This document shows, one piece after another, positions 2,703 to 35,330 of a stretch of DNA of 46,703 nt. The notes under the pieces are model-generated. The model was not told where the DNA came from and did no database searches. It saw only the letters and a program-made list of their open reading frames with translations. The stretch's first letter is position 1. Each line of letters begins with the position of its first letter. The stretch is from an uncultured Bacteroidales bacterium (lineage in GTDB: Bacteria; Bacillota_I; Bacilli_A; ML615J-28; CAG-698), in contig CAZYFI010000002.1 in assembly GCA_964646985.1 (NCBI GenBank), positions 1 through 46,703 on the forward strand. The letters are read 5' to 3'. The position numbers and the translations under genes were made by a program.

Positions 2703-2909
2703 TTATCTTCCCGCAAAAAATATGAGCCACATGATGAAAGCAAGGGTCCCTAATACGCCAATGGTAGGTAATACAAACATTAGGAAAGCAGCAATCATCA
2801 TTGCTCCAAAATCCCCTTTTTCTAAAGGCGTTTCTCGCAAATTTTCGCGTGCTTTTTGCTCTTGCTCGGGCGTAAATTTAAGACGGTTTAATAGTTTCTG
2901 TTTCTTCAT
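2703..2909 (-). CDS. Hypothetical small membrane protein (68 aa: charged N-terminus plus one or two TM segments)
   Basis: ORF fills the oppF-spx gap. It has a hydrophobic C-terminal half (MMIAAFLMFVLPTIGVLGTLAFIMWLIFFA). No clear SD, and it overlaps the oppF 3' end by 32 nt. Confidence 0.4.
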   Translation of the reverse strand: MKKQKLLNRLKFTPEQEQKARENLRETPLEKGDFGAMMIAAFLMFVLPTIGVLGTLAFIMWLIFFAGR

Positions 2910-5034
2910 AGAAATGACATGCTACAAAGCGACCTGGTTCCACTTCGCGGAATTCAGGAACACGTTGAGCACACTCCTTACGAGCCAATGGGCAACGAGT
3001 TCTAAACTTGCAACCACTTGGTGGGAATACATTCGATGGAATGTCTCCGGCTAAGAAAATGCGTTGTTTTGTGCCCTGATCAGTAGTTGGAATTGCGGAA
3101 ATAAGGGCTTTTGTATAAGGGTGAAGCGGACGTTGATAAACTTCATCAGCATTACCTAACTCAACAATTTTACCCAAATACATGACACCAATACGGTCAC
3201 TAATATGTTTGATAACACTCAAATCATGAGAAATAAACAAATAGGTCAAATTCTCTTGATCGCGTAAATCTTCTAACAAATTGATGATTTGTGATTGAAT
3301 CGAAACGTCCAAAGCACTTACTGCTTCATCACAAACGATGAACTTAGGATTGACAGCCAAAGCTCTGGCAATACCAATTCTTTGGCGTTGACCACCAGAG
3401 AATTGATGTGGGTAACGATGCAACATATATGGTGCAAGTCCACATTTTTCCATTACTTCTAAGATGATATCTTGATAAGATTCTTTCACCTTATTCTCTA
3501 CATTGTGCGCTTTGAGTCCTTCTCCAATGATTTGTCCAACTGTTAAACGTGGATTCAATGAAGAATATGGATCTTGGAAGATTAATTGCATGTCTTGACG
3601 TAAGCGACGCATTTCTTCTGAGGTTAAGCGTGATAAATCAAGTCCTTTTTCTTTCTTTTCTTCCAACATTGCATACATTGGATGAGATGATACTCTTTCA
3701 TTCGCATCTTTAATGGATTGAGTAAGTTGTTTGCTTAATTCACTTAAACGATAATTATCAGTTTGCAACACTTCAATTTTTGCTTGTAGTTTTTCAATTC
3801 TTTCTTGAAAAACATCTTTTTGAAATTGGGTATATTTATCTGATTCATCTGCTAATTTTTGTTCTTGTTTGAATTTATTTACTTCTAGTATTTGCAACTT
3901 ATCACGATTGATTTGCATTTTGTGAAGAGCATCAATGTTTTTAAATAATGTTTTCGCGACTTCATCGATATCGTTAGATAAAATAAAGGCACCTGTAACA
4001 TTGGATGTTTTTTCTAATAATTTTTCGATTTTTTTGTTTAATCTAGCGATTTGTTTCTTTTCTTGTTCAAAATTATTAAAATCTTTTAACTTTTTGATTT
4101 GTTTTTGCTTTTCAAAGTGAATCAATTTTTGCGCAACAAGTTTTGAAAGAATCTCAGTATTTAATTCAATTGGTTTTTCCAAAAGCGATTTGATTCTAGC
4201 AATACTCTTAGAAACGTCATCTTTAATAATATTAATATTTTTTTGTGCTTCACGAATATCGATATCAACTTCAATAATATGACTTTGCGCTTTACGTTCT
4301 GCAATAGATAGTTTTTTATTTAAATCAGCAATTAAGTTTAAATCAGCGTTTTCAAGTTGTTTTCTAATTTTTGCAACTTCATTTTCTGCTTTTACATTTT
4401 TAATCTTTTTTTGCTTTTCTAATTCTTTTTCTAAATCTACAATTTTTAATTCTAGTTTTGCAATTTTTTCTTCACTTTTATAAATAAACTCATCTAACTT
4501 CAAAGCTTGTTTGATTGCTTTGATGTTATTAGATGAAAAGAAAGTCCCGCATTCATTACGACATTGATCAGCAATTACGTCACATTCACTTTGTAGTTTC
4601 GTGATTTCATTTTCATTTGCTTTACGTTTTTCTGCTAAAGTTTGATCATGCTTTTGCGCTTCAATTTTTTCCTCAATTTTTGGAACAGCAGTTGATAATC
4701 GTTCGTATTTTACACGCGAATTCTTTAAACGGTTGATTTCTTTAAAAAGATATCGTGGTGAATAATCTTCAAGAGTATATCCATAATAAATAATTTTCCC
4801 TGAAGTGATTGGATAAAGTTGCAATAATACGCGCCCCAATGTTGATTTTCCACAACCACTTTCTCCAACCAATCCTAGCGTTTCTCCTTTATGGATTACT
4901 AAATCAACGCCATCGTTGGCTTTTACTGTTAGTACTTCTCGCTGGAATAAACGGGTTTTTTTCAATGGAAAATATTTTTTCATGCCCACAATTTTAATTA
5001 GTGGTTCGTTTGTTAATACTTTACTTTTTCCCAT
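2878..5034 (-). CDS. oppF: Oligopeptide ABC transporter ATP-binding protein OppF with a coiled-coil insertion of about 385 aa
   Basis: Walker A GESGCGKST, Q-loop IFQDP, signature FSGGQRQR, Walker B FIVCDEA, H-loop ISHD, and C-terminal oligo_HPY motif HPYTKALISAIP. Start reassigned to ATG 5034 (MGKSKV...) behind RBS GAGGAG. The track ORF start at 5091 lies inside oppD. Confidence 0.85.
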   Translation of the reverse strand: MGKSKVLTNEPLIKIVGMKKYFPLKKTRLFQREVLTVKANDGVDLVIHKGETLGLVGESGCGKSTLGRVLLQLYPITSGKIIYYGYTLEDYSPRYLFKEINRLKNSRVKYERLSTAVPKIEEKIEAQKHDQTLAEKRKANENEITKLQSECDVIADQCRNECGTFFSSNNIKAIKQALKLDEFIYKSEEKIAKLELKIVDLEKELEKQKKIKNVKAENEVAKIRKQLENADLNLIADLNKKLSIAERKAQSHIIEVDIDIREAQKNINIIKDDVSKSIARIKSLLEKPIELNTEILSKLVAQKLIHFEKQKQIKKLKDFNNFEQEKKQIARLNKKIEKLLEKTSNVTGAFILSNDIDEVAKTLFKNIDALHKMQINRDKLQILEVNKFKQEQKLADESDKYTQFQKDVFQERIEKLQAKIEVLQTDNYRLSELSKQLTQSIKDANERVSSHPMYAMLEEKKEKGLDLSRLTSEEMRRLRQDMQLIFQDPYSSLNPRLTVGQIIGEGLKAHNVENKVKESYQDIILEVMEKCGLAPYMLHRYPHQFSGGQRQRIGIARALAVNPKFIVCDEAVSALDVSIQSQIINLLEDLRDQENLTYLFISHDLSVIKHISDRIGVMYLGKIVELGNADEVYQRPLHPYTKALISAIPTTDQGTKQRIFLAGDIPSNVFPPSGCKFRTRCPLARKECAQRVPEFREVEPGRFVACHFYEETETIKPS

Positions 5035-6019
5035 TATGTCTCTCCTCGATGTTCGGATAGAAACAGCGCACCGACTGAATGTCAGTAACATGAACTAAAT
5101 CTGGTTCTTCATTGATACATCTTTCCGTAGCATATTTGCATCTTGGTGCAAATTTGCATCCTTTTGGCAAATCAAGCGGATGGGGAACGGCGCCAGGAAT
5201 TGCTTCTAAGCGGTCTTTATCTGTTGATAAGCGGGGAATCGAAGTCATAAGACCTTCTGTGTATGGATGGGAGAATTTTCCAGTATCCGAAAATATCGTA
5301 CTAACCGGGGCTTTTTCTACAATCTCACCACAATACATAACAACAACATCATCCGCCATTTCATTAATAACACCTAAGTCATGGGTGATGAAAATAATTG
5401 ACATGTTCGATTCTTTTTTCAAATCATTCATTAATTTTAAAATTTGTGCTTGAATGGTAACGTCTAAAGCTGTGGTAGGCTCATCCGCAATCAAGATTCG
5501 TGGACGGCAAGCAAGTGCCATAGCAATCATAACCCTTTGACGCATCCCACCACTCAATTGATGTGGATATGTTTTTGCGACTTTTTCCGGGTTAGGGATG
5601 CCAACTTCACGAAGCAAATCAACGCTTTTCACATAGGATTCTTTTTTACTCATTCCTTGGTGAATTTGAAATACTTCACCAATTTGACGTTCTACCGTGA
5701 AAACAGGATTTAAAGAGGTCATGGGTTCTTGGAAAATGACAGATATTTTATTCCCACGAACATGTTGCATGGCTCTTTCGCTTACTTCAACTAAATTTGT
5801 TCCTTCAAGATAAATTTCACCTTGATCAATATAACCATTGCCATCGAGCAATCGCAGAATAGACATTGCGGAAACACTTTTTCCAGATCCACTCTCACCA
5901 ACAATGCCAAGAGTTCTTCCTTCATCAAGTGTATACGAAACACCATTCACAGCTTTTACTACACCGCGCTTGGTTTTAAAATATGTATGTAAATTTTTAA
6001 CTTCTAATAATAACGACAT
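5021..6019 (-). CDS. oppD: Oligopeptide ABC transporter ATP-binding protein OppD
   Basis: 332 aa. Walker A GESGSGKS, signature LSGGMRQR, Walker B ILIADEPTTALD, HPYTEGLMTSIP. RBS AGGAGG upstream. Confidence 0.9.
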   Translation of the reverse strand: MSLLLEVKNLHTYFKTKRGVVKAVNGVSYTLDEGRTLGIVGESGSGKSVSAMSILRLLDGNGYIDQGEIYLEGTNLVEVSERAMQHVRGNKISVIFQEPMTSLNPVFTVERQIGEVFQIHQGMSKKESYVKSVDLLREVGIPNPEKVAKTYPHQLSGGMRQRVMIAMALACRPRILIADEPTTALDVTIQAQILKLMNDLKKESNMSIIFITHDLGVINEMADDVVVMYCGEIVEKAPVSTIFSDTGKFSHPYTEGLMTSIPRLSTDKDRLEAIPGAVPHPLDLPKGCKFAPRCKYATERCINEEPDLVHVTDIQSVRCFYPNIEERHNGKK

Positions 6020-6028
6020 ATGGTCCTC

Positions 6029-8017
6029 CTACCTTTCTCTTGACCTTGGGTCAACAGCATCACGAATAGCATCGCCAATAATGTTAATGCTAATTGTAGA
6101 AATACACAAGAAAATGGATGGGAATACCCAGCGCCACCAAGCTGCTTTAATGACTGACATTTCTTGTGCTCCACTAAGCATGTTACCCCAAGAAGGAGCT
6201 GGTAATTGTACACCAAAGCCTAAGAAAGACAATCCTGATTCAGTCAGCAATGAGCTTGCATAACCTAAAGTTGCATTGATAATAATAATCGTAAGAACGT
6301 TAGGAATGATATGTTTGAATATAATTGCTCGGGATTTAACGCCCAATGCTTTCGCAGCAACTACGAACTCTTTTTCACGTTCAGACAAAATTTGAGCACG
6401 AATTAATTGCGCCAAACCTGTCCAACTTAGAACACCTAAGATTACCATGATCATAACCATTCTATCTGTGGTATCAAAATCAGCATTTGCTTGATTTAAG
6501 ATAACCGACAAGGTCATGGCCAACGGGAAGAAAGGAATGGAACCGACAATTTCTGCAAAACGCATCAATAAGATATCAACTTTTCCACCATAAAAACCAG
6601 AAATACCACCAACGATGATACCAATTGTTGTAGAAATAACAACGGCAACCAAACCAATTGTTAAGGAAATTCTTCCGCCATTTACAACACGGGCAAATAC
6701 ATCACGGCCATATTCATCAGTACCAAACAAATGTCCTTTGTGTCCATAAGCTCCTAGCAAATTGCCTTCAGCATCTGTTACAAAATTTTGGAAAAAGCTT
6801 GAATAAATATTAACCGCTTGGGTTCCTTCACTTAATTCTTTTGGAACATCTGTTGCTCCATAAGTATCATCACCCCAAGAATAAACAGATCCATCATCCA
6901 AAATTGCAGAGATGTGTTGATAATTATCTGAACCAACAGCTGTCTTAGAAATTTTAACTACTCTTCCTTGAATTGCAGGATCAAAGTCTAATTCTTTCGA
7001 TAGATTATCTCCCCATACAACAATGGTTCCGTCTTCCCTTAAAACAACAGCACTACCAGCAGTAGTAACAAGTTGCTTGCCTTTTGCATCAGGTCCTAGT
7101 AAGACTGCAGGAATATTGGTTGAAACAGAGCCTGTACCAACGACTTTCACTGTTCCGTCATCAAGTAAGAAAGTTATGTTTTCTCGAGAAAAGCCAGCAT
7201 AAACGGCCTTTTTCCCTACCAAAGCTTGTACTAAATTATAAGGTCGTTTCGAAGTGTTTCCCCACATGAATACGCGGTTTTTGTTAGTAATTACAATCGT
7301 AACTTGGTTTTCTGCAACTACTTCAAGAACGCCGCCATCATCTTCAATTGCCTTCACAACATTGACTGGAGAAACATATCCTTTCATAAGCAAACTAGTT
7401 GGAATGTTTGTAATGCCAAAAGAAATGGTCTCGGTCACCAAACCAAAAGAAATCAAAGAGCCGTCCATTTTTTCTAAAACAAAGTGTTCAGTTCCGGCCC
7501 AAACACGTTTTGCTTTTAAACCCACAGTAATTGCTTCACCTTTTTTAATATCATCTGGTGCTGCTCCGCCTGATGGAAATCCTTCAGCAATTTTATCGAC
7601 GTCTACACCCCAAATATAAACATTGTTTTCTTTATCAATGCCCATACTAAAAGTTGATGCAACAGCAATGTCTAAAATTCCATTTTCCTTTAGTTTATCT
7701 GGAACACTCAACATTGAAAATCCAGGACTAATATTTGCTTGTGTTTTATTCACATAATAGATATCTGCTTTGATAAAAAGACTTCCAACAAAACAAAATA
7801 ATAATACTGCTAAAAAGACGCTAAGCCCAATAATTGCAAGTTTGTTTTTTACAAACTTTTTCGCTGTTACTTTAAGAGGGCTTTGTACAGCTTCTTCTTC
7901 AAGAATCGTCATCTCTTTGTGTGTACCAAAAAAACTTCTGGAAAACATCGATTTGATTGCACGGCCAATAACGATAAATATCTCTTTTATGTTTTGAAAT
8001 AAATTTCTTTTTTTCAT
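6029..8017 (-). CDS. oppC: Oligopeptide ABC permease OppC with a large extracytoplasmic RCC1-like repeat insertion
   Basis: The C-terminal 230 aa or so is a canonical OppC/DppC membrane domain (GTDEYGRDVFARV..., EAA-type loop AAKALGVKSRAIIFKHIIPN). Residues ~83-430, after TM1, are extra (see findings). Confidence 0.85.
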   Translation of the reverse strand: MKKRNLFQNIKEIFIVIGRAIKSMFSRSFFGTHKEMTILEEEAVQSPLKVTAKKFVKNKLAIIGLSVFLAVLLFCFVGSLFIKADIYYVNKTQANISPGFSMLSVPDKLKENGILDIAVASTFSMGIDKENNVYIWGVDVDKIAEGFPSGGAAPDDIKKGEAITVGLKAKRVWAGTEHFVLEKMDGSLISFGLVTETISFGITNIPTSLLMKGYVSPVNVVKAIEDDGGVLEVVAENQVTIVITNKNRVFMWGNTSKRPYNLVQALVGKKAVYAGFSRENITFLLDDGTVKVVGTGSVSTNIPAVLLGPDAKGKQLVTTAGSAVVLREDGTIVVWGDNLSKELDFDPAIQGRVVKISKTAVGSDNYQHISAILDDGSVYSWGDDTYGATDVPKELSEGTQAVNIYSSFFQNFVTDAEGNLLGAYGHKGHLFGTDEYGRDVFARVVNGGRISLTIGLVAVVISTTIGIIVGGISGFYGGKVDILLMRFAEIVGSIPFFPLAMTLSVILNQANADFDTTDRMVMIMVILGVLSWTGLAQLIRAQILSEREKEFVVAAKALGVKSRAIIFKHIIPNVLTIIIINATLGYASSLLTESGLSFLGFGVQLPAPSWGNMLSGAQEMSVIKAAWWRWVFPSIFLCISTISINIIGDAIRDAVDPRSRER

Positions 8018-8020
8018 ATT

Positions 8021-9025
8021 TTACCCCAACTTAACCCTTGGATCAACAACAGTATAGAGCAAATCCAGTAATAAATTTCCAACTAATCCGAGCATTGTGT
8101 AAAACAAATTCATTGCTAGAATAACAGCATAATCTGGTCCTTGCATAAGGGCGTCATAGAGGGTTTTCCCCATTCCCTTCCAAGCGAAAATGGTCTCAGT
8201 AATAGTAGATCCACCAAATATTCCTAACATCCATCCAGTCATGATGGTAACAACAGGAATCATGGCATTACGAAAAGCATGAGAATAAATAACGACTTTT
8301 TCACGAAGTCCTTTTGCTCTTGCTGTTCGAATATAGTCTTGCGTTAAAATATCAATCATCGTACCACGTACATATCGGGTAATTCCCGCAAGAGATGATA
8401 CAGTCAATACAAACACTGGTAAAACCATGTATTTCAAATTATCTAAAAATCTTTGGAACCACGTCATTTGTTCGCGTAAAATGATTCCGGAATTGCTTCC
8501 GCTACTTGGTAAAATTCCTAACCAAGCTGAAAACACTAAAATTGAAATCAAGCCAACGAAAAAACTTGGAATCGACATTCCAACGATTGTGAAAACTTGA
8601 ACACCGTTATCAAAAGTTGAGTATTTTTTGACAGCCGTTTTAATTCCCAAAGGAAACGTAATGGCAAAAACACAGATAAGCACGAATACATTTAATTTAA
8701 TGGTGTTAACCATTGGTGCTTTAATATACCGTAATACTTCAACTCGACTTTGTAAAGTATAGCCAAAATTACCTTGCAATGTTTCTTTTAGCCACATGAA
8801 ATATTGAATAATCAATGGTTGACCAATACCCAAGTCAATTTGAGCTTGCTTAATCATTAACACATACAAATCAGGATCCGATTGTTTTAATGATTGGTCA
8901 ACATACGCCATAACTCTGGCCATATCACCACCAGGAATTGATTTATATAAGAAAAACAATATGACAGTAATTATAAATGCAACAAAGAAGATATATAAAA
9001 TTCTTTTTATAATATATCTAGACAA
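8021..9025 (-). CDS. oppB: Oligopeptide ABC permease OppB
   Basis: BPD_transp_1-type permease (TARAKGLREKVVIYSHAFRNA). The track ORF begins with TTG at 9046. However, AAGGAGG at 9032-9040 sits 6 nt before a second in-frame TTG at 9025 (MSRYIIKRILY...), which is the typical OppB N-terminus. The start is therefore uncertain between 9025 and 9046. Confidence 0.8.
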   Translation of the reverse strand: MSRYIIKRILYIFFVAFIITVILFFLYKSIPGGDMARVMAYVDQSLKQSDPDLYVLMIKQAQIDLGIGQPLIIQYFMWLKETLQGNFGYTLQSRVEVLRYIKAPMVNTIKLNVFVLICVFAITFPLGIKTAVKKYSTFDNGVQVFTIVGMSIPSFFVGLISILVFSAWLGILPSSGSNSGIILREQMTWFQRFLDNLKYMVLPVFVLTVSSLAGITRYVRGTMIDILTQDYIRTARAKGLREKVVIYSHAFRNAMIPVVTIMTGWMLGIFGGSTITETIFAWKGMGKTLYDALMQGPDYAVILAMNLFYTMLGLVGNLLLDLLYTVVDPRVKLG

Positions 9026-9043
9026 ACTAGTTTCCTCCTTTTT

Positions 9044-9077
9044 CAAAAATTAGGAGATTGGTGAAAACCAATCTCCT
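9044..9077 (-). terminator. Intra-operon hairpin between oppA and oppB (partial terminator or mRNA stabiliser)
   Basis: Perfect 11-bp stem aggagattggt (9052-9062) / accaatctcct (9067-9077) with a GAAA-type 4-nt loop. On the minus strand it is followed by AAUUUUUG. Confidence 0.6.
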
Positions 9078-9105
9078 TAATTTAATGTCTAATCGGCCGA
9101 ATTAA

Positions 9106-11523
9106 TTATCCTTCAATAGTTGCGTATAATACGGCTTCGGTTAATGTCCATTCAGCTGTTACATCATAGTTCTTTAGCTTAGGAGAATAGAAAGCGTGAT
9201 ACATATCAGAATACAATGGTAATGATGGTAACAAGATATTAAATCTTAATTGATATTGTTGCCAAGCTTCTAGGTATTCTTGATCATCAGCAGCTCTCAT
9301 CATTTTTAAAGCAGCATCAAGCATTTCTTGATCGAATAAATAGTTGATATTTGCGCCGCCGTCCCAGCCCCAATACTCAATAGAAACATCATAGTAAGGT
9401 TCAAATAAACCAGTATTGAAACCTGTACCTAAGTTAACCATATGGTATTCACGAGCGTCTGTTTCAGTTGCTTCGTATGCAGGGATATCTGCAACTGTCC
9501 ATTTGCCATCGCCATCTTCATCTTTTGGTAAGCCGTAGCCATCGCCATCAGCGCCATAATAATGAGTGTATAACAATGTGTTGAAATCCATTGGTTGATC
9601 TTTAATTTCCATACCAACTGCTTTTGCATTTGGTAATAATTGAGCACGAATTAAGTCAGATACTGGGTTACCAGTTGTATTTGCCCAAGGAACTGTTAAT
9701 TTTACAAGTTCTGTTCCGACTAATTTGTAACGAACTGAACTTCCATCAGCAGCTTGAACATATGCGCCACCAGTAGCATTCTTATTCCAACCAGCTGCTT
9801 CAAGTAATTGAACAGCTTTTGCTGGATCATAACTATATGAATTTAATGCAACTAGATTGCCATCTTTGTCACGGCCTTGTACAACGCCGTTTTCATCTTC
9901 AGATGCGCCAACCATCCATTGTGCTAAACCATATTGTCCATTAGGTAATACACCATATCCACGAGTGTATGTCTCTAAGAATAAGTTACGATTAATTAAG
10001 TAAGCAATTGCTTGACGAACTTCTACATCTGCTGTAGGTCCAGAAGGTGCATCACAGTGGAATGCAATGTGTCCGAAACCATTACGAGAGAATGTTGAGA
10101 AGTTAATATTGCCATAAGCAACTTCTTGTAATCCAGAAATGATAGCATCGCCACCAGAAACTGATTCAATGATGTCAATTTCGCCATTCAATAATGCTTG
10201 CATTTGTGTTGCAGTTGTAACATATTTGAACACGATATTGTCAATGTCTGGTTTTTGACCTTGATAGTCACCAACAAATTTGTCATTGATTTTTAAAGTA
10301 GCTGTTGAAGTTGATTCATCAAAATCATATAAAGAGTAAGGGCCGCAAGTAACACTAATGTCATAGCGGTATCCAGCGCCGTCTTTATCAACAGTTGCTG
10401 CTAAAGCTTCAGCTGTCCAAGTGCCAGAAATCTTCGCACCATTTGTTCCTTGTACTACATCAGCAGCTGGAGCAATGACATGCATTGGCCATGGAGCTGC
10501 AGAATAGTATAAGAACTCATAGTAGTAAGGGAAACGATCTGCGTTGATTGAAATTGAGAATTTATGTGTTCCAAGTAAATCAACACCAGCTAATTCAGCT
10601 AAACCATCAGCATTTTTAGCTGGGTCAGCAAAATCTTTACTACCAACGATATCACCAGTAGTAGTCAATGCTTTACCAATTGCTGTAGCAAATACAGGGT
10701 TAATTGATAATAACATTGGGAATACATAGTCTTTCGCATCAATTGCAGTTCCATCATTCCATACTAAACCTTCATTGATTTCGATTGTATAAGTCTTTGA
10801 TCCATCAGTGTTTTCAGTTACAACAAAGTCTTTTACAACGGTTGGGTCAATCATGTAACGAGCTGCTTCTTTTTGATAAGATACAGTTCCGTACCCAAAT
10901 GTTAATGAACGAATATCAGCATTAGTAGCATTGTTGCCCCAGAATGTTGAGAACATATTAACACCAGCTTCAGTAGTAGAGCCAACTGTTAATGTAGTTA
11001 ATGCTTTTACAGTTACAACTTTAGTTTGTTGTCCTACGCCAGCAAGTGCACAAGTAATTGTTGCAGTTCCGGCTTTCAAACCAGTAACAACACCGTTTGC
11101 AACGGTTGCAACAGTAGCATCGCTTGAAGTCCATGTGAATGCAGGTGATGGCTTATCTGTTGTAGCAGTCAAAGTCAATGTTTTACCAACTTTAACTGAA
11201 CTGTCTCCAGCTAAACTGAAATTGAATTCAGTAACAGAGATAATTATAGTTTTTTCGCCAACGCCTTCAACGCTAACAGTAATAACTACTTCACCAACGG
11301 CAACGCCAGTTACAACGCCGTTATTAACTGTAGCTCGAGCAGTATTGCTTGAAGTCCAAGTAAAGACTGCTTCTGGCTTTTCAGTCACAGGAACTAAAGT
11401 GATTGTTTCTCCGACTTTTACGGTTTGTGGGCCTGAAAGAGAAAGAGTATACGTCTCTTCTTTACAGCCAACAAAAACTAACGCAAGAGCCAAAAAGAAA
11501 ACTAAACTTAAGAATTTTTTCAT
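9106..11523 (-). CDS. oppA: Lipoprotein, family-5 solute-binding protein (OppA-like) with two N-terminal Ig-like (Big_2-like) domains
   Basis: Signal peptide and lipobox LVFVGC. Two units of about 75 aa match each other (…VKVGETITLVPVTEKPEAVFTWTSSNTARATVNNGVVTGVAVGEVVITV / …VKVGKTLTLTATTDKPSPAFTWTSSDATVATVANGVVTGLKAGTATITC). These are followed by an SBP_bac_5-like body of about 620 aa. It is the first gene of the opp operon. Confidence 0.8.
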   Translation of the reverse strand: MKKFLSLVFFLALALVFVGCKEETYTLSLSGPQTVKVGETITLVPVTEKPEAVFTWTSSNTARATVNNGVVTGVAVGEVVITVSVEGVGEKTIIISVTEFNFSLAGDSSVKVGKTLTLTATTDKPSPAFTWTSSDATVATVANGVVTGLKAGTATITCALAGVGQQTKVVTVKALTTLTVGSTTEAGVNMFSTFWGNNATNADIRSLTFGYGTVSYQKEAARYMIDPTVVKDFVVTENTDGSKTYTIEINEGLVWNDGTAIDAKDYVFPMLLSINPVFATAIGKALTTTGDIVGSKDFADPAKNADGLAELAGVDLLGTHKFSISINADRFPYYYEFLYYSAAPWPMHVIAPAADVVQGTNGAKISGTWTAEALAATVDKDGAGYRYDISVTCGPYSLYDFDESTSTATLKINDKFVGDYQGQKPDIDNIVFKYVTTATQMQALLNGEIDIIESVSGGDAIISGLQEVAYGNINFSTFSRNGFGHIAFHCDAPSGPTADVEVRQAIAYLINRNLFLETYTRGYGVLPNGQYGLAQWMVGASEDENGVVQGRDKDGNLVALNSYSYDPAKAVQLLEAAGWNKNATGGAYVQAADGSSVRYKLVGTELVKLTVPWANTTGNPVSDLIRAQLLPNAKAVGMEIKDQPMDFNTLLYTHYYGADGDGYGLPKDEDGDGKWTVADIPAYEATETDAREYHMVNLGTGFNTGLFEPYYDVSIEYWGWDGGANINYLFDQEMLDAALKMMRAADDQEYLEAWQQYQLRFNILLPSLPLYSDMYHAFYSPKLKNYDVTAEWTLTEAVLYATIEG

Positions 11524-11575: not shown

Positions 11576-11604
11576 ATTATACACATCGAAAGGAAAGGTG
11601 TCAA
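11576..11604 (-). promoter_or_regulatory. SigA-type promoter of the opp operon
   Basis: On the minus strand, TTGACA (11604-11599), a 17-nt spacer, then TATAAT (11581-11576). This is an exact consensus. Confidence 0.7.
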
Positions 11605-11743: not shown

Positions 11744-11749
11744 GATAAC

Positions 11750-11968
11750 TATAAACAATGATAAGGAATAGTATAGTGTTTGCCTCTTTGTAAAGCGAGT
11801 GTTGGATCGTGAAAGCAACGCCAAAAGCCCACTAGAATGGACCTTAGAGTGCAATGAAGAAATGCATTGACGTTTTGTTCGCGTTAAGAACTTTGAGTGT
11901 ATTGTTAACAATAAACTAAGGTGGTACCGCGGAATATTTCGTCCTTAATTCAATTAAGGACTTTTTTT
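11750..11968 (+). promoter_or_regulatory. T-box riboswitch leader, Trp specifier (UGG)
   Basis: Conserved T-box sequence AAGGTGGTACCGCGG (11919-11933). Terminator gtccttaatt/aattaaggac (11941-11961) plus a T-run. Stem-I GA/AGTA elements (gataaggaatagta). Candidate specifier GAA-UGG-A at 11838-11840. Confidence 0.85.
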
Positions 11969-11980
11969 ATTGGAGGATAT

Positions 11981-12973
11981 ATGAATATTATTTTATCAGG
12001 CGTTAAGCCCACAGGAATTCCAACTTTAGGCAACTATTTGGGTGCTTTAAGAAATTTTGTTAAGTTCCAAGACAAAATGAAGGACTATGATTTCTTTATT
12101 TTTGTTGCCGATTTGCACGCCATTACAACCCCACAAGATGCAACAGTGTTGAAGCAAAACATCAAAAATGTAGCAGCCCTCTATTTGGCTTGTGGTTTAA
12201 AACCCGAAAGACTCACATTGTTTATACAATCAGAAGTAAAAGAACATGCGGAACTTGCTTATATCATGCAATCGCTTGTGTATATGGGTGAATTAGAACG
12301 TATGACCCAATACAAAGATAAAATGGCAAAGCAAGTCCAAGGAGTTAGTGCGGCTTTGTTTACTTACCCTGCCCTCATGGCAGCTGATATTTTGCTTTAC
12401 GATGCAAAATTTGTACCCGTTGGCGAAGATCAAAGACAGCATTTAGAGTTAGCAAGAGACCTTGCCATTCGTTTTAACAATCGTTTTGGAAATACCTTTG
12501 TGGTTCCGGATGGACTCATTCAAGAAAAAGGAGCTAGGATCAAAGATTTGCAAGATCCTACCAAAAAGATGGATAAATCTGCTGATAATGATCGTGGTTG
12601 CATTTATCTTCTGGAACCTTTATCACAAGTGCGTAAAAAAATCAAATCTGCTGTAACAGATAGCGAAGCTCAAGTTCGCTATGACCTAGAAAACAAACCA
12701 GGAATCGCTAACCTAATGACCATATATTCTGTGATCACTGAGATGTCTTTCTCTGATATTGAAACAAAATATCAAAATAAAGGATACGGAGACTTCAAAG
12801 GTGATCTTGCAGAAATTGTTGTAAAAGAAATAGAAGGCATTCAAAATCGCTATCAATATTACATTCATTCTCAAGAATTAGATCAACTGCTAAATGCAGG
12901 AAGAGCCAAAGCTTCGCTATTGGCAAGTAAGAAAATAGCTCAAGTTTATAACAAAATGGGACTTGGACGTTAA
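11981..12973 (+). CDS. trpS: Tryptophan--tRNA ligase
   Basis: Collinear with B. subtilis TrpRS (GVKPTG..TLGNYLGA, VPVGEDQRQHLELARD, KKMDKS). True start is ATG 11981 behind GGAGG. The track start at 11921 (GTG) lies inside the T-box sequence. Confidence 0.95.
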   Translation: MNIILSGVKPTGIPTLGNYLGALRNFVKFQDKMKDYDFFIFVADLHAITTPQDATVLKQNIKNVAALYLACGLKPERLTLFIQSEVKEHAELAYIMQSLVYMGELERMTQYKDKMAKQVQGVSAALFTYPALMAADILLYDAKFVPVGEDQRQHLELARDLAIRFNNRFGNTFVVPDGLIQEKGARIKDLQDPTKKMDKSADNDRGCIYLLEPLSQVRKKIKSAVTDSEAQVRYDLENKPGIANLMTIYSVITEMSFSDIETKYQNKGYGDFKGDLAEIVVKEIEGIQNRYQYYIHSQELDQLLNAGRAKASLLASKKIAQVYNKMGLGR

Positions 12974-13055: not shown

Positions 13056-13976
13056 TCATAGAAAACCAATAATCTCTTGGTAAGTTGGCAAAGCATCAAT
13101 CGCTCCTTTTTTTGTAGTCGTCAATGCTCCCGAAATGTTTCCAAATCGTAACAGTTGTTTAATTTGCCAATCAGATAAAGAACGAATATCTTTTTGATCA
13201 AGATTTGCTAAAACACCAGCATAGAAAGCATCTCCAGCTCCTGTTGTATCAAAGGACTTGACTACAATGGAAGATTCCTTGATTAATCGGTTGTTTCTAA
13301 AAAAGACGGAACCTTCTTTCCCAAGAGTCAAGAAAATCGTTTGATTTGGCCGAGCTATTTTTTTCAATCCCTCTTCATAATTAGCGTCTTGAGTAAAAAG
13401 GGTTAATTCGTCTTGTGATAGCTTTAGAAAATCAGCTAAACAAGCATAAGATTGATAAATTTCGATGGCCGTCTTTTGATTTACGAACAAATCATCTCGA
13501 AAATTGACATCAAAGCTTAGTAATTGGTGATTGTCTTTCACAGTTTGGATAATCTGATCAGCCAACTTTCTCCCTTTTGGTTCGCTTAACATGAGGGACC
13601 CCAAATGAACAATGTTTGCTTTTTTTAATTGAGCAAGACTGGTTTTAGGAATATGAAAATCAGCGGTATTATGACGATAAAAACTAAAATGGCGTTCACC
13701 GTCTTCATCATTTGCAACAAAAGCAAGAGTCGTATTATGCTTTGAATCTTCTGTAAGACAAAGATTGGAAAACGAAATAGTTGAAGCAAATTTTTTTAGG
13801 AATTTTCCCATTAAATCCACGCCAACATTGCCAATAAATCCGACCTTTCCGCCGAATTTCGCAATCCCGCAAGCAACATTAAAAGGTGCTCCCCCGGCAA
13901 AAGATTCGTATGTAACTGTTTGCTTGTTCTTGTTTCCAATTAAGTCAACGAGAATTTCTCCGATGCACACAATCAT
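13056..13976 (-). CDS. Fructokinase (PfkB family sugar kinase)
   Basis: 306 aa. N-terminal GEILVDL...FAGGAPFNVA and the C-terminal PfkB ATP motif DTTGAGDAF. Sits in the fructan locus. Confidence 0.85.
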   Translation of the reverse strand: MIVCIGEILVDLIGNKNKQTVTYESFAGGAPFNVACGIAKFGGKVGFIGNVGVDLMGKFLKKFASTISFSNLCLTEDSKHNTTLAFVANDEDGERHFSFYRHNTADFHIPKTSLAQLKKANIVHLGSLMLSEPKGRKLADQIIQTVKDNHQLLSFDVNFRDDLFVNQKTAIEIYQSYACLADFLKLSQDELTLFTQDANYEEGLKKIARPNQTIFLTLGKEGSVFFRNNRLIKESSIVVKSFDTTGAGDAFYAGVLANLDQKDIRSLSDWQIKQLLRFGNISGALTTTKKGAIDALPTYQEIIGFL

Positions 13977-13986
13977 AATCGTTTCC

Positions 13987-14949
13987 TCAAGTTGTTTCTC
14001 CTAATATAAAATTCGTCGGAACAAAGGTAAATACTTCGGATGGTTCGTTGTTCATCCTTTGAATTAACTGGTTAACTATTGCCACCGCCAAAGCTTCGAT
14101 GTCTTGCTTGACGACGGTAAATTTAGGATGTTGTAATATTTCGTCCATCACGCCATCAAAGGAAATAATTTTAATGTCTTCCGGGACTCTTTTTTCAAAT
14201 TGAAGGGCAATTTGAAAACAAGTGTTTGCGAAAGTATCGCTTTGAGCAAAAATGCCATCTAGCGTCGGGTTGTCTTGCAAAAATTTCTTTGCCACCACAA
14301 ACTCTTCGCCGTGATATATATTTTTGTAACATGATGTTGGTTCCATGTTGTATTTTTGCATAACATCTAAATAAGCAAAATAACGTTTTTGGGTCTCCGA
14401 AGGGGCACTTGACATCCCACCAATGTAACCGATATGTTTACAGCCCTTTTGAACAAGATGTTCAATGGCCTTAAATGTGCTTTCATAGTTATCGCTAGTT
14501 ACACAAGGAACATTATCTAGATGACGATCCAAAGTCACAATATTTAAACCTTGAAAATCAATATCTTGGTATAGGTGGTTGGTAATAAAAATGATCCCAT
14601 CTACTTGTCCGGTTTTAATCATGTTCAACAAATGGATTTCTTTATCTCTTTTTCCTTGAGAACTAACAATAATCATTTTAAACCCTTTTTGATACAAATA
14701 ATCCTCAATGTAAAAAGCAATTTTGCTAAAGAAAACGTGACTAATGGTCGGAACAAATAAGGCTACCAACCCCGATCGTTTGGCTTGCAAGTTTCGCCCC
14801 AATTGATTGGGGATATATTTTAAATCTTTGATGGCATCTTCGATTTTTTTTCGCGATTCCTCAGAAACATAACCATTGTTGTTGATGTACCGAGAAACCG
14901 TCCCAATGCCCACCCCAGCACGTTTGGCGACTTCTTTCATTTGGGCCAT
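13987..14949 (-). CDS. LacI-family transcriptional regulator of the fructan locus
   Basis: HTH MKEVAKRAGVGIGTVSRYINN plus a periplasmic-binding-protein-like effector domain. Start set to ATG 14949 (MAQMKEV) behind AGGAG. Confidence 0.85.
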   Translation of the reverse strand: MAQMKEVAKRAGVGIGTVSRYINNNGYVSEESRKKIEDAIKDLKYIPNQLGRNLQAKRSGLVALFVPTISHVFFSKIAFYIEDYLYQKGFKMIIVSSQGKRDKEIHLLNMIKTGQVDGIIFITNHLYQDIDFQGLNIVTLDRHLDNVPCVTSDNYESTFKAIEHLVQKGCKHIGYIGGMSSAPSETQKRYFAYLDVMQKYNMEPTSCYKNIYHGEEFVVAKKFLQDNPTLDGIFAQSDTFANTCFQIALQFEKRVPEDIKIISFDGVMDEILQHPKFTVVKQDIEALAVAIVNQLIQRMNNEPSEVFTFVPTNFILGETT

Positions 14950-15039
14950 AATTAATACTCCTAACAAAATAAATTTCTTAACTTATTATATCACTATCAA
15001 GAACATTTTTAGCAGATGTTTTCAAATTTTTGTATAAAA

Positions 15040-15087
15040 AGTAGTTCTTTCACAATACTTTTTTTATGCATTCATGAAAGAACTACT
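15040..15087 (-). terminator. Terminator of the fructan operon
   Basis: 13-bp stem agtagttctttca (15040-15052) / tgaaagaactact (15075-15087). On the minus strand it is followed by UUUUAU. Confidence 0.6.
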
Positions 15088-15104
15088 TGATGAATCAATT
15101 GAAA

Positions 15105-17852
15105 TCATCCAACCAATTGATTGGCGATTGTTTGCCATGGAATGTTGTGACTGCGTTCAACGGTCCATTGATCAGAAGCATCTTTGCTGTATAAAGTAAC
15201 CGTGTCAAATCCGTTAGCGATATCTGGAGTAACGGCATAATACGTAGTTACAGCATCAAAGAAAGCAACTGCCCAACCAGCAACTTCAATGTCACAAAGT
15301 TCAAGGTATAATTCTTGACCTAAGTAAGCACTTAAATCAATGAAATATGTTCCCATATCCGCCCAAGAGCCACCAGCATCAACATTAGGGAAATTGGTGT
15401 CGCTAAAACGGTTTTGCTTGTATAAGCCTATTTGAGTGCCATCAGCTTGATATACTTTAACAGCTGCGGCATTTCCGCCCATTTTCACAGAAATAAATCC
15501 TGTTCCATGAAGAGTGAAATTAGTGGAACGCAATGAATATTGTTCGCCTTCTGCAACGCCTGAAGTCCAACCATCAAAATGATAATTGCCACTTTGGTTA
15601 TAAGGAAGTTTTTCATTCCAATAATGTGTCATATTGATGATAGCATTAACAGTAACTTTTTCTGAAGTCCACCCTGTCATATCTCCGGTTTCAAAACCGC
15701 CATTGATAACAACACCATTATTTGCCATTTCCCAAACAATATTAACATTTGGTTCTTGAACCGAATCTTTTGTGGATCCAGCCACCGTATCAAACCCGTT
15801 CGCAACATCTGGAATAGCAGTATGATAGAAATTAATATCATCAAAGAAAGCAACTGCCCAACCAGCTGTAGCTGGATCATCAATCAATTCAACATAGACT
15901 TTTTCGCCTAAATATGCTGATAAATCTGCAAAATAGCGTGTCATGGTTGCCAAACGGCCACCGTTTGCTAAATAAGGGAAATCAAAATCTTTAAATCGAT
16001 AATTAGTGAAGTACCCAATAACGGTTCCATCTTCCAACACAACTCTAACTGCGGCAGCTTTGCCACCCATCATAAACGAAGCCCAACCTGTTCCAGATAA
16101 AGTGAACAATCCAGAACGAAGGGTATAGCCAGCTCCTTCATTAGATGTAGCTGTCCAACCATCAAAGTGATAACTTCCTTGCTGGTTATAAGCTATTTTT
16201 TCACCCCAGAAAGTTTCTGCATTTAAAGCCCCATTGGCGATTTCACCAGAAACAACTGTCCAACCGGTCATATCTCCAGTTTCAAAGCCACCATTGGCAA
16301 CATTGGTACTAGCCGATACAACAACATTGAAAGTACTAGTGACGGTTTCGCTTTCATAAGTCGCTCCATAATGAACGACATAAGTTCCTTCTTGATTAAA
16401 ATCAAAAGCATCAAATCCGGTTGTAAACTCGGTTTCGCCTAAAACAACTTTGGTAATAACAGCCGGTACGGCAGTTTCACCATAAGAAATAACGACATCA
16501 TCCATTAATGCGGTCAAATCATAATCATCAACCAAGGCTGTTACAAAGCCTTCAGCTTCTGTTTCAATCATTAAAGCTGGCAATTCAAATGGATAATCAT
16601 AATTGGTGTAGTAATCTTGCAAATGAGCAAGCGAATTATATGAATCAGTATATGTTTCTGCCATAATCGCTTGATAAGTAGATTTCATTAACGCTTTTAC
16701 TTCGGCTTCAGTCATGCTGACACGGAAATCATCAGCATTAATAAATGCAAATCCGCTACTTGGATTGTTATCCACAATCGAAAGATAGAGAACATCGCCA
16801 AGATAATCTGATGCATCAACATACACACGACGTAATGTCAAAGGCAACCCTGGATCGTTAAAAGTCGTATTCGTAACGGTGATTAATTCTGCATCCGTTG
16901 TTCCGTCATTAATCGAAATATAACAATTAGTTGGTCCTGCACCAATCATAAACGAAATCCAACCATCACCCGCTAATGTAAATTTTGTGGAACGAATCGC
17001 GCCAACTGCTGATTCTGCCGTTGCCCCGTTGTTGTTTCCATCTAAATAATAATCCCCTTCGCCATATACCAAACGATCTGTCCAGTAATATTGCGTAGTT
17101 GGTACAACAACCGTTCCGCCAAATGCTGTTCCGCTTAATTGTTTCCAGCCAGTTAAATCACCTGCTTCAAATCCACCATTGTTGATGGTTGTTGAAGTAG
17201 GATCTTCTTCAAATTCTGGTTCGCCATAAGCTTCGATTTGAGCATCTCGCTCTGTTTGGAAAGCCGTAACTTCGGCTTCTGTCAAGCAAACTACAAAATC
17301 ATCTAAATTAACATAACCATAATCATCGGTATTATCACTATCCGTCACTTTGATGTAAATGACTTTATTTAAGTGTGCTGATAAATCAACGATTTTGCGA
17401 ATCATTTGATCAGTGATATATGGTTCATTGTAATCAGTGTTTGATACTTTTAATAGCGCAGTATCATTGTCTTTTTCAAAGAATTCTACAAAGATCTTAT
17501 CTTGATTCTTTCCAGCTCCCATTTTGAAAGCAATCTTTCCAGTTCCTGTTAATTGGAAGAAATCGGAAGTCAGTGTTCCCACCATTTTTTGGGTTCCGCC
17601 ATCGGTACCACTAAACCAAAATTCACCGGTTTTATCAACCGTAATTCCATTCACTTTTACATCATTCACAATTCCTCGAGGACTAAACGCAGTTTCTGTT
17701 TTCGTCCATCCCGTCCAAACTTCTGCAGTTCCAAGCTCAAATCCACCATTGGTGATTTGGGTTGGATACTCTTCTTTTTTACCACATGCTGCTAACAACA
17801 TTAACGATAGTGTTAGCGTCACTACAAAGGTAAAACGCAACCATTTTTTCAT
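15105..17852 (-). CDS. Large non-catalytic surface lipoprotein with four CBM-like beta-sandwich modules (putative fructan-binding protein)
   Basis: Lipobox LLAAC. Four modules of about 155 aa each open with NGGFE(x)G(x)(x)(x)GW, at about aa 33-188, 222-378, 518-676 and 715-872. No GH32 catalytic motifs. Co-operonic with the GH32 genes. Confidence 0.75.
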   Translation of the reverse strand: MKKWLRFTFVVTLTLSLMLLAACGKKEEYPTQITNGGFELGTAEVWTGWTKTETAFSPRGIVNDVKVNGITVDKTGEFWFSGTDGGTQKMVGTLTSDFFQLTGTGKIAFKMGAGKNQDKIFVEFFEKDNDTALLKVSNTDYNEPYITDQMIRKIVDLSAHLNKVIYIKVTDSDNTDDYGYVNLDDFVVCLTEAEVTAFQTERDAQIEAYGEPEFEEDPTSTTINNGGFEAGDLTGWKQLSGTAFGGTVVVPTTQYYWTDRLVYGEGDYYLDGNNNGATAESAVGAIRSTKFTLAGDGWISFMIGAGPTNCYISINDGTTDAELITVTNTTFNDPGLPLTLRRVYVDASDYLGDVLYLSIVDNNPSSGFAFINADDFRVSMTEAEVKALMKSTYQAIMAETYTDSYNSLAHLQDYYTNYDYPFELPALMIETEAEGFVTALVDDYDLTALMDDVVISYGETAVPAVITKVVLGETEFTTGFDAFDFNQEGTYVVHYGATYESETVTSTFNVVVSASTNVANGGFETGDMTGWTVVSGEIANGALNAETFWGEKIAYNQQGSYHFDGWTATSNEGAGYTLRSGLFTLSGTGWASFMMGGKAAAVRVVLEDGTVIGYFTNYRFKDFDFPYLANGGRLATMTRYFADLSAYLGEKVYVELIDDPATAGWAVAFFDDINFYHTAIPDVANGFDTVAGSTKDSVQEPNVNIVWEMANNGVVINGGFETGDMTGWTSEKVTVNAIINMTHYWNEKLPYNQSGNYHFDGWTSGVAEGEQYSLRSTNFTLHGTGFISVKMGGNAAAVKVYQADGTQIGLYKQNRFSDTNFPNVDAGGSWADMGTYFIDLSAYLGQELYLELCDIEVAGWAVAFFDAVTTYYAVTPDIANGFDTVTLYSKDASDQWTVERSHNIPWQTIANQLVG

Positions 17853-17865
17853 TTTTCTCTCCTTT

Positions 17866-22280: not shown

Positions 22281-22289
22281 TTTTCCCTC

Positions 22290-24644: not shown

Positions 24645-24651
24645 CACTTCT

Positions 24652-25575
24652 CTATTTCAATCCCGTAAAAGCGACACCTTCTATGATATATCTTTGTGCA
24701 AAGATATAAACAAGGGCAATTGGAATTGTACTAAACGTGAGGGAAGCCATGACAAGAGAGATATCTTTTGGATTAAAATTGTTGATAAGTTGTAAGAATA
24801 CTTGTAATGGTTGTTGGGCTGGGTTCGAGAACATTAATTGTGCAAACACATATTCATTCCAACTTCCCATAAACGTAAAGATGGCAACGGTCGCAAAGAC
24901 AGGCAGCGACAGCGGAACAACCACTTTAAAGAAAGTCGTTAATTTCGAAGCTCCGTCCACATAAGCAGCTTCTTCTAATTCCTTAGGAATTCCCAAGAAA
25001 AAGGCGCGAAACATGAAGATATAAAACGGACTGACTAACCCCGGCAATAAGTAACCGATAATGCGAAATTCCGGAGATAGTAATCCAAGATTTTTTAAAA
25101 TGACATATAGTGGAACAATCGAAGTTTCAACCGGAACAATCAAGATTAAAATGATAATGCTGACAATGGTTTTATGGCCAGGAAATACAAAGCGCGACAA
25201 AGCATAACCAGCAATCGAATTAACCAGTAATACTCCCGTAATCGAAACGGTGGCATACATAATACTGTTTAGGATTGATCGTCCAAAATTATCAAAAGTA
25301 GAAAACAAGTTCTGATAAGATATTAACCATTTGCTTACATCCCAAGTGGCAGGAAAAAAAGTTTTAATCGAATTAATATTCTCATACACTTGTGCTTGGG
25401 TTTTAAAACTATTGGATAACATCCAAACAACTGGGAACAAAAAGATAATACATAAAATGACCAACATGATTCTAAACAGTATTTTAATGATGATTTCTTG
25501 AAACGAATAATGCCGTTTTTCTTTCTTTGGCAATTGTAAAATCGATAATGGAATATCTTTGCGTTTTTTCATCAT
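24652..25575 (-). CDS. Carbohydrate ABC transporter permease (MalG/MsmG-like)
   Basis: Six-TM BPD_transp_1 permease with EAA loop (ELEEAAYVDGASKLTTFFKVVVP). Start set to ATG 25575/25572 behind GAGGTG. Confidence 0.85.
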   Translation of the reverse strand: MMKKRKDIPLSILQLPKKEKRHYSFQEIIIKILFRIMLVILCIIFLFPVVWMLSNSFKTQAQVYENINSIKTFFPATWDVSKWLISYQNLFSTFDNFGRSILNSIMYATVSITGVLLVNSIAGYALSRFVFPGHKTIVSIIILILIVPVETSIVPLYVILKNLGLLSPEFRIIGYLLPGLVSPFYIFMFRAFFLGIPKELEEAAYVDGASKLTTFFKVVVPLSLPVFATVAIFTFMGSWNEYVFAQLMFSNPAQQPLQVFLQLINNFNPKDISLVMASLTFSTIPIALVYIFAQRYIIEGVAFTGLK

Positions 25576-25582
25576 TATCACC

Positions 25583-26515: not shown

Positions 26516-26529
26516 TGTTCACCTCTATT

Positions 26530-27879: not shown

Positions 27880-27958
27880 CCTTTCTGTTGTCATTAAAAA
27901 TGAGAAAATAGTTTGTTTCATGATTATGTTTTGAAACATCTAGAATTTGCATTCTATA

Positions 27959-32390: not shown

Positions 32391-32510
32391 TATTTTGAAA
32401 TCCTTATGTAGCATTGTAGCATATTGACCCTCATTTTACAATTATTTGTTTACTAAAAGCCTGAGATTTAGTATAATGTTACTTACGAAGAACCAAAGGA
32501 GCCCGTTAAC

Positions 32511-35118: not shown

Positions 35119-35135
35119 ATATCCTCCTTTAAACA

Positions 35136-35328: not shown

Positions 35329-35330
35329 CT

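Follow-up and report, generated by a model that had tools for sequence, protein, structure and literature searches.

Can extra domains on several subunits of one oligopeptide (Opp) transporter form a coordinated set, and what kind of importer would they then make? The question is raised by an opp operon in a 46,703-nucleotide (nt) stretch of DNA from an uncultured Bacteroidales bacterium (GenBank assembly GCA_964646985.1, contig CAZYFI010000002.1), which we analyzed over its whole length and refer to as the window. An initial annotation described five opp genes whose OppA, OppC and OppF products carry additional domains, and proposed that this coordinated decoration serves more than simple peptide import. 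We find that the importer components are all present and intact, and that the add-ons are conserved, structured and operon-specific. The operon probably encodes a distinct, six-component importer of the Opp type that is binding-protein-dependent and ATP-driven, with the add-ons as accessory modules of its OppC-OppF half, a reading that we hold with moderate confidence. The six-gene subfamily to which it belongs is widespread, and apparently undescribed in the literature or in the curated families that we found. Proteins of the family are annotated merely as generic ATP-binding cassette (ABC) subunits, and our literature search found no paper that joins OppC with RCC1, describes a permease propeller or describes insertions in Mollicute OppF.

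The OppC propeller

OppC is recognizable as a permease at both ends. Pfam assigns the OppC_N transmembrane segment to amino acids (aa) 46-98 and BPD_transp_1 to aa 466-660, and Foldseek matches the membrane part to Escherichia coli OppC (41% identical) and Mycobacterium tuberculosis OppC. Residues 108-388 match RCC1_2 with 54.4 bits against a cutoff of 22, and WD40_RLD with 79 bits, below its cutoff of 150. In an AlphaFold2 model, the first transmembrane segment (TM1) spans aa 59-81, the membrane core spans aa 440-655, and aa ~107-425 fold into seven blades, each a group of 3-4 strands, with a predicted local distance difference test (pLDDT) score of ~85. The RCC1-type match and the seven modeled blades bear out the external propeller that was first suggested for this subunit. 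It occupies the extracytoplasmic TM1-TM2 loop, directly before a GTDxxGRD motif that is conserved across the OppC alignment.

The best Foldseek matches to the propeller are BLIP-II (TM-score 0.69, target-normalized), UVR8 and the HERC2 RLD, which have the same seven-bladed RCC1-type fold (target-normalized TM-scores of 0.6-0.7, E ~1e-13) at 15-20% identity. The propellers of these three proteins are protein-protein interaction modules, and BLIP-II binds beta-lactamase. Unlike them, the OppC propeller is embedded in the loop of a membrane protein and is not a soluble protein. A protein search detected this OppC architecture in ~100 protein clusters (90% identity), which come from Bacilli metagenome-assembled genomes (MAGs), Anaerorhabdus, Sedimentibacter, Clostridiales and Acholeplasmataceae. 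In a sister clade (P0013-P0017, of which P0016 is encoded at L085 8001-10700), OppC is 761-899 aa long, a further helical segment of 100-240 aa rich in Ala, Glu and Lys lies between propeller blades, and the small gene described below encodes 127 aa.

An insertion within the OppF ATPase domain

OppF was originally thought to carry an added cytoplasmic coiled coil. The extra helical module is real and all-helical, but it is an insertion within the ATPase domain and not an appended domain. When OppF is aligned with the OppD chain of M. tuberculosis (8j5q), query residues 13-83 correspond to chain residues 350-420, and query residues 464-653 to chain residues 422-608. The jump from 83/420 to 464/422 means that ~380 OppF residues stand where this and the other solved systems have one. 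The Walker A helix is succeeded by a strand (SGKIIYYG), and the insertion site falls between this strand and GLDLSRL…MRRLRQDMQLIFQDP, which leads into the Q-loop (IFQDP). The motifs of OppF are intact, namely Walker A, Q-loop, an LSGGQ-type signature (FSGGQ), Walker B and H-loop.

An AlphaFold2 model based on a 15-sequence alignment predicts the insertion to be all-helical with a pLDDT of ~90, and to consist of ~10 helices of 15-45 residues. The insertion is nearly free of indels in an alignment of 14 homologues that reach down to 49% identity, and it retains two GxF turn motifs, CGTFF and TGAFILS. The OppF length of 714-720 aa is kept in 18 clusters, also down to 49% identity, which rules out a frameshift or fusion artefact as the source of the long protein. 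The two halves of the insertion align with each other (hhalign, 90% probability, E 1.6e-6), and each half also aligns with the single ~190-aa insertions found in 50 clostridial OppF proteins (97-98.6% probability, E 5e-11 and 1e-15). The insertion in the window thus arose by tandem duplication of an older module. The longest OppF insertions, in proteins of 636-720 aa, are found in the Acholeplasma-like clade.

Searches with the OppF model in Foldseek matched the ATPase core only, with OpuA and MetNI among its structural neighbors, and gave no match to the helical insertion. A phmmer search with the insertion alone against 1.84 billion representatives returned one strong match (P0122) and two borderline matches, the module being too divergent for a single-sequence query. 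An assignment to the coiled-coil ATPases of the SMC/Rad50 type was considered and rejected. In those ATPases a long antiparallel coiled coil with a hinge or hook at its end takes the place of the helical subdomain and starts beyond the Q-loop, whereas the OppF insertion precedes the Q-loop, is made of comparatively short helices in two repeated modules, and has no hinge or hook motif.

A sixth gene after oppF

The operon had been taken to end at 2878 with oppF, which overlooked a sixth conserved gene that follows. Its product in the window is a 68-aa protein, MKKQKLLNRLKFTPEQEQKARENLRETPLEKGDFGAMMIAAFLMFVLPTIGVLGTLAFIMWLIFFAGR. Public gene calls include a similar-sized gene at the same place in six other loci (Sedimentibacter, twice; an Acholeplasmataceae MAG; and four further contigs), and none of these called genes has a Pfam match. 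We built a hidden Markov model (HMM) from ten of the small proteins and searched 8,391 small open reading frames (ORFs; 35-135 aa, six frames) of the window and all fetched loci, ~1.3 Mb in total. All 54 matches lie from -150 to +165 nt of an oppF stop codon, on the same strand and in propeller-type operons. No match occurs elsewhere in the ~1.3 Mb searched, and none in 20 loci with a canonical OppC that serve as controls.

The small protein corresponds to no family in Pfam or NCBIfam. A charged N-terminus of variable length is followed by the consensus L-E-K-x-D-x-x-A-M-x-I-x-A and, at the C-terminal end, by ~30 hydrophobic residues with a central Pro. Asp and Ala are each present in 52 of 53 sequences, and the motif reads LEKGD-xx-AM-x-I-x-A in the window. 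These features predict a bitopic membrane protein of ~65 aa with a near-invariant juxtamembrane Asp.

Distribution and co-occurrence

A scan with the full OppC alignment, which used one genome per GTDB species, detected propeller-type OppC in at least 58 species; its counts are lower bounds, and the closest relatives of the window are not among the matches listed. The hosts among those matches include Lachnospiraceae, Oscillospiraceae, Ruminococcus, Roseburia, Agathobacter, Sellimonas intestinalis, Anaerococcus, Tissierellaceae, Christensenellales, Erysipelotrichaceae and a Treponema MAG. The sampled propeller operons come mainly from Clostridia, and some from Erysipelotrichia and Acholeplasma-like Bacilli. 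The subfamily is inherited both vertically and horizontally. The same scan also yielded the 20 canonical control loci. In propeller loci, the distance from Walker A to the signature motif in the second ATPase is nearly always 222-316 residues, compared with 104-119 in canonical ATPases.

To tally co-occurrence we used 55 operons from ~55 species, with both ATPase genes complete and an OppC no shorter than 540 aa. Of these, 45 have the OppF insertion together with the small gene, 4 the insertion only, 2 the small gene only, and 4 neither, one of which (L064) is a false propeller call. Altogether the insertion is present in 49/55 operons and a small gene directly after oppF in 47/55, whereas canonical operons with either feature number 0/6. 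We propose to define the six-gene subfamily, for which we suggest the name propeller-Opp, by a propeller in the OppC TM1-TM2 loop, a helical OppF module before the Q-loop and a gene for an LEKxD small membrane protein directly after oppF, all of which are found in the window.

Canonical importers are also encoded beside decorated ones. Sedimentibacter sp. zth1 (L001, CP071445.1 1658956-1680806) has two tandem six-gene propeller operons, with OppF proteins of 485 and 482 aa. Downstream of them, beyond glmS and its ribozyme, lies a canonical operon with a 412-aa OppC and a 326-aa OppF. This organism is cultured and its genome is complete, making it a good experimental entry point. Similarly, the sugar ABC importer of the window itself is undecorated (permeases of 310 and 317 aa). 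Since canonical importers accompany decorated ones both within one genome and within the window, the decorations are operon-specific and not lineage-specific. That they might be a trait of every ABC importer in the lineage, which had been set in advance as the second of two findings that would count against the original proposal, is rejected on the same grounds.

In an Erysipelothrix MAG (L030 10010-14474), oppC is apparently followed first by the insertion-bearing ATPase (491 aa) and then by the canonical one (312 aa), with the small gene behind the latter, so that the gene order there may be C-F-D.

Ig-like domains of OppA

The two immunoglobulin (Ig)-like domains reported on OppA are present, as two stretches matching Big_2 (PF02368; 45.6 bits against a cutoff of 22.8, E 7e-12). 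They stand between a lipoprotein-type signal (...FVGC, lipobox aa 1-20, Cys20) and a family-5 binding core that begins at aa ~175 (SBP_bac_5 at aa 237-662, E 1e-40). The combination of Big_2 with SBP_bac_5 is found only in nine clusters that are 68-93% identical to the OppA of the window, all of the same architecture and 805-809 aa long, plus one 1,016-aa variant. The next OppA relatives (P0250-P0253; 651-665 aa, 62-69% identical over the core) have no Big_2, and their contigs also encode a propeller OppC and a 717-aa OppF. Big_2 is likewise missing from OppA in L002, L084 and L085. The 1,016-aa variant, P0254 from a Bacilli MAG, has Flg_new (PF09479) repeats in addition to Big_2 before the binding core.

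Across the propeller family, OppA is 597-805 aa long, and the segment preceding the binding core varies. Erysipelotrichaceae and Acholeplasmataceae have no additional sequence there, Anaerococcus and others have acidic low-complexity linkers, and Oscillospiraceae-type members have a conserved segment with no Pfam match. BLAST with the Big_2 pair of the window and Pfam searches of nine other long OppA proteins found no common domain in the N-terminal extensions. The Big_2 pair is a recent, lineage-specific spacer between lipid anchor and binding core.

The coordinated decoration of three subunits proposed in the initial annotation thus holds for the OppC propeller and the OppF insertion, which occur together across deeply diverged Bacillota, but not for the OppA Ig pair, which is restricted to relatives at least 68% identical. 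Judged by their distributions, the three decorations have three ages: the propeller and a single OppF module are ancestral, the duplication of the OppF module belongs to the Acholeplasma-like clade, and Big_2 is recent.

Core components and operon organization

The core of the operon is that of a PepT (Opp-Dpp) type I importer (TC 3.A.1.5), with a family-5 cluster C binding protein, two permeases of the OppB and OppC types and two oligo_HPY ATPases. The best NCBIfam matches of the binding protein and permeases are Opp4A, Opp4B and Opp4C, and the permease scores are both below the equivalog cutoffs (Opp4B, 244.7 bits against 450; Opp4C, 321.1 against 350). Canonical models cover OppB and OppD from end to end, and both proteins are near-canonical as first described: OppB aa 10-339 align to positions 3-319 of the 319-position Opp4B model, and OppB also aligns end to end with the DppB model, while OppD aa 4-322 align to positions 1-314 of the 318-position OppD model. 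The oligo_HPY domain is detected in both OppD and OppF with E ~1e-19, and translations of both ATPases contain intact catalytic motifs and all four cysteines.

The five opp genes are co-directional on the minus strand, where the initial annotation placed them (Table 1). The consensus promoter and the tight or overlapping junctions that it noted are also confirmed, with every consensus position of the promoter matched. Between oppA and oppB there is a gap of 59 nt with a hairpin, the following two gaps are 3 nt and 9 nt, and the oppD stop and oppF start overlap by 14 nt. The hairpin is a possible partial terminator, which could lead to an excess of oppA message. The listed oppF ORF is 2878-5091, and its likely start is the ATG at 5034, which has a GAGGAGA ribosome-binding site upstream.

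Table 1. Features of the six-gene operon, in transcriptional order
Feature	Coordinates	Strand	Basis or remark
Promoter of oppA, sigma-70-type (TTGACA, 17-nt spacer, TATAAT)	11576..11604	-	12/12 consensus positions; consensus match only
oppA, lipoprotein substrate-binding protein, 805 aa	9106..11523	-	Pfam SBP_bac_5 and Big_2
oppA, two tandem Big_2 Ig-like domains, aa ~24-96 and ~99-173	11005..11454	-	Pfam
oppA-oppB gap hairpin, terminator-like (11-bp stem, then T run)	9052..9077	-	In 59-nt gap
oppB, canonical permease, 341 aa	8021..9046	-	BPD_transp_1_N and BPD_transp_1
oppC, permease with propeller insertion, 662 aa	6029..8017	-	Pfam, AlphaFold2, Foldseek
oppC, 7-bladed RCC1-like beta-propeller, aa ~107-425	6743..7699	-	RCC1_2, WD40_RLD, AlphaFold2, Foldseek
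oppD, canonical ATPase, 332 aa, four-cysteine C-terminal domain	5021..6019	-	ABC_tran and oligo_HPY
oppF, ATPase, 718 aa from ATG at 5034, four-cysteine C-terminal domain	2878..5034	-	Motifs read in translation
oppF helical insertion, ~380 aa, two homologous ~190-aa modules (~4180-4767 and 3640-4179)	3646..4785	-	Alignment, AlphaFold2, hhalign
Sixth gene, small membrane protein, 68 aa	2703..2909	-	HMM; overlaps oppF stop by 32 nt

Comparison with known transporters

The solved E. coli OppBCDF and DppABCDF and M. tuberculosis OppABCD systems (PDB 8z21, 8z1v-8z1z, 8j5q) have the same five core components in the same gene order as the window. The ATPase core of E. coli OppF is 54% identical to that of the window OppF over 233 aligned columns. 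The four-cysteine oligo_HPY domains of the ATPases are also shared; the C-terminal domains of this kind in DppD and DppF bind [4Fe-4S] (PMC12136057), whereas in the window such binding is predicted only. Solved systems differ in having a short OppC or DppC TM1-TM2 loop where the OppC of the window has a propeller of ~320 aa, and they lack both a sixth subunit and Ig-like spacers on their binding proteins.

An expansion at the same site of the ATPase is implied by the coordinates of the Mollicute NCBIfam models for OppD (NF043079, MMSYN1_0167, 561 positions) and OppF (NF043078, MMSYN1_0168, 649 positions), which leave room for a ~215-320-aa insertion between Walker A and the Q-loop. By synteny, the host of the window is itself a relative of the Mollicutes. 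Residue 81 of the window OppD aligns to OppD model position 297, and residue 534 of the OppF ORF to OppF model position 464. The window proteins fall outside both equivalog families (scores of 310.7 against a cutoff of 800, and 242.9 against 740), and only the insertion site is common. Moreover, both ATPases are expanded in mycoplasmas, whereas in the window only OppF is, and a propeller is absent from the Mycoplasma OppC model (307 positions).

Accessory domains in other ABC importers include the CBS domains of OpuA, the C-terminal domains of MetN and MalK, and the fused binding domains of OpuA and GlnPQ, which regulate the ATPase or hold the binding protein near. These additions are N- or C-terminal fusions of other folds. 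None of them is inserted ahead of the Q-loop, forms a propeller within a permease loop or is accompanied by a dedicated small membrane subunit.

Proposed mechanism and alternative explanations

The transporter would still operate as an ATP-driven importer that relies on its binding protein. Its cargo is most likely peptides, as suggested by the family assignment of the binding protein, by the best NCBIfam matches (Opp4A, Opp4B and Opp4C), by the 54% identity of the ATPase core to E. coli OppF and by an M3 oligoendopeptidase gene (L086 3825-5519) that is divergent from and adjoins oppA in one relative. The window itself has an M29 aminopeptidase gene (36376-37623, minus strand) 25 kb from the opp genes, which is consistent with peptide import.

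In E. coli DppBCDF, DppB contacts DppD and DppC contacts DppF, and the DppB region between TM1 and helix α3 forms a scoop motif that enters the binding protein (PMC12136057). OppB presumably retains the region that bears this motif in DppB. By homology, the conserved add-ons would all be on or beside the OppC-OppF half, and the OppB-OppD half would be canonical. Because they share this half, the add-ons may form one functional unit. Outside the cell, the propeller could act as a protein-interaction platform next to the OppA docking site, on the side of OppC, and its probable role there is to capture or retain the lipid-anchored OppA, or else a partner that supplies OppA. The long, variable N-terminal spacers of OppA (Big_2 in the window, acidic linkers or an unassigned domain in others) would give the binding core reach beside or over the propeller. 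On the cytoplasmic side, the charged N-terminus of the small protein and the helical module of OppF probably form a membrane-proximal accessory assembly, which would stabilize or regulate the OppC-OppF half.

Several observations weigh against a six-component unit of this kind. About 5 of 54 propeller operons have an OppF of canonical length (L005, L020, L042, L045 and L044; the L044 protein has 462 aa, yet canonical Walker A-to-signature spacing), and ~7 have no detectable small gene, so the parts are separable. The Mycoplasma OppD and OppF models imply same-site insertions without any propeller. The matches of OppA to the Opp4A, NikA and CntA models of NCBIfam are all far below cutoffs. In the AlphaFold2 model of OppF, built from a shallow alignment, the ATPase core and C-terminal domain have low confidence, and the direction in which the insertion points is unreadable. 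The functional roles of all the add-ons are ones that we infer, and co-occurrence in an operon family of single origin can reflect inheritance and not functional need.

This last point can be extended to an explanation in which the add-ons arose once and were inherited together, with no functional coupling, in a transporter that behaves as an ordinary Opp. The family does look single-origin, its permease cores being 33-45% identical to one another with generic OppC outside, and exceptions occur in both directions in the 55-operon tally. The Big_2 addition is plainly sporadic, and the insertion evolves fast enough that phmmer recovered only one strong representative. Nevertheless, the features are kept across Clostridia, Erysipelotrichia, Acholeplasma-like Bacilli and a Treponema MAG at 33-41% OppC identity; the insertion is almost without indels and its turn motifs are conserved; the Asp and Ala of the small protein are near-invariant; and the duplicated module, once formed, was held at a fixed length in 18 clusters. 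We regard neutral accretion of this sort as unlikely, if not strongly so.

As possible functions, the initial annotation offered tethering of OppA at a distance from the membrane, binding of a polymeric or host ligand, and coupling of transport to a cytoplasmic partner. In a ligand-capture machine, the more ambitious of its readings, the propeller would bind a ligand or partner other than OppA and would couple this binding to uptake; candidates are polymers of the wall or host, and proteases or peptidases that are secreted or on the surface. Its nearest structural neighbors are indeed protein-binding propellers, P0013-P0017 have an added extracellular coiled-coil insertion in theirs, P0254 has further surface repeats on OppA, and some family-5 systems import non-peptide ligands. 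However, no conserved gene for a secreted partner was seen nearby in the inspected loci. A search of six related loci with Rfam found no regulatory RNA upstream of the opp operons, and neither riboswitch nor regulator points to a substrate there. The propeller is also fused next to the docking site of the binding protein, which favors contact with OppA. We regard a separate capture function as improbable. A further idea was that the decorations anchor or space the transporter in the naked membrane of a wall-less, Mollicute-like host. The window shares extended synteny with an Acholeplasmataceae MAG, the clade has the longest OppF insertions, the Mycoplasma models imply insertions at the same site, and Mycoplasma pneumoniae OppF is named in a fractionation list, among proteins of a detergent-insoluble core (PMC4669176), although that paper says no more about it. 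This rationale fails for the family as a whole, most members of which belong to walled Clostridia (Lachnospiraceae, Oscillospiraceae, Anaerococcus, Sellimonas). Our sample already goes far toward showing that walled hosts have the propeller operon as often, and conserve it as well, as Mollicute-like ones. Because the hallmark set is operon-specific within one genome and the Mycoplasma OppC model is without a propeller, adaptation to a wall-less cell seems very improbable to us.

The accessory-module reading that we prefer can be taken one step further, to a version that is decidedly speculative and, in our view, doubtful. The small LEKxD protein might link the TM1 and propeller side of OppC to the OppF module, so that external binding gates ATP hydrolysis, or cytoplasmic signals gate docking; such systems might occur commonly in gut Clostridia, and the expanded Opp ATPases of mycoplasmas might descend from them. 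If true, the family would be a new class of six-subunit importer with a built-in transmembrane regulatory or sensing arm. The chance of a new regulatory principle is real but unproven.

Opp and Dpp systems are textbook importers of nutrient and signaling peptides, and their first full structures date only from 2024-2025. To these structures the family adds a large external propeller, an insertion within the ATPase fold and a candidate sixth subunit, making it a concrete target for structural biology that may also explain the length of mycoplasma OppD and OppF. It is common in gut and rumen Clostridia (MAGs assigned to Roseburia, Agathobacter, Oscillospiraceae, Anaerococcus and others; Sellimonas intestinalis) and in Mollicute-like Bacilli, and probably accounts for a real share of peptide uptake in those communities.

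Genomic context

The window has long synteny with an Acholeplasmataceae MAG and other 'Bacilli' MAGs. The shared order comprises genes for a P-type ATPase, rimM, trmD, rplS, a LacI-family gene, tyrS, trpS and the opp operon, followed by an spx/arsC-family gene, a CYTH gene, genes for a small alarmone synthetase and an NAD kinase, and clpP. T-box leaders are located at 11749-11949 (plus strand), 35157-35335 (minus) and 44572-44802 (minus), upstream of trpS (11921-12973), tyrS (33859-35136) and a gene for a pyridoxal phosphate-dependent enzyme (43289-44464), respectively. None controls the opp operon; the leader beside it belongs to trpS, on the opposite strand.

Between tyrS and trpS, the window has a fructan-utilization locus and surface-glycan genes. 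Related contigs L002 and L084 are without the fructan locus at this place, and it therefore looks inserted. The locus (13056-27939, minus strand) encodes three glycoside hydrolase family 32 (GH32) enzymes, two of them with Laminin_G_3 modules, a PfkB kinase, a LacI regulator and the canonical sugar ABC importer, whose binding protein is 469 aa long. Adjoining the GH32 genes, a 915-aa protein (15105-17852, minus strand) has no Pfam match at E ≤ 1e-5, weak sub-cutoff matches to the NTTRR-F1 repeat of NCBIfam and a faint N-terminal match to a lipoprotein signal (E 0.0087-0.11); it may be a surface protein of the fructan locus. The surface-glycan genes (28324-33837) encode a Wzy_C ligase-like protein, YfhO (908 aa), a family-2 glycosyltransferase and GtrA, and are relevant to whether the host, despite its Acholeplasma-like synteny, has surface glycopolymers.

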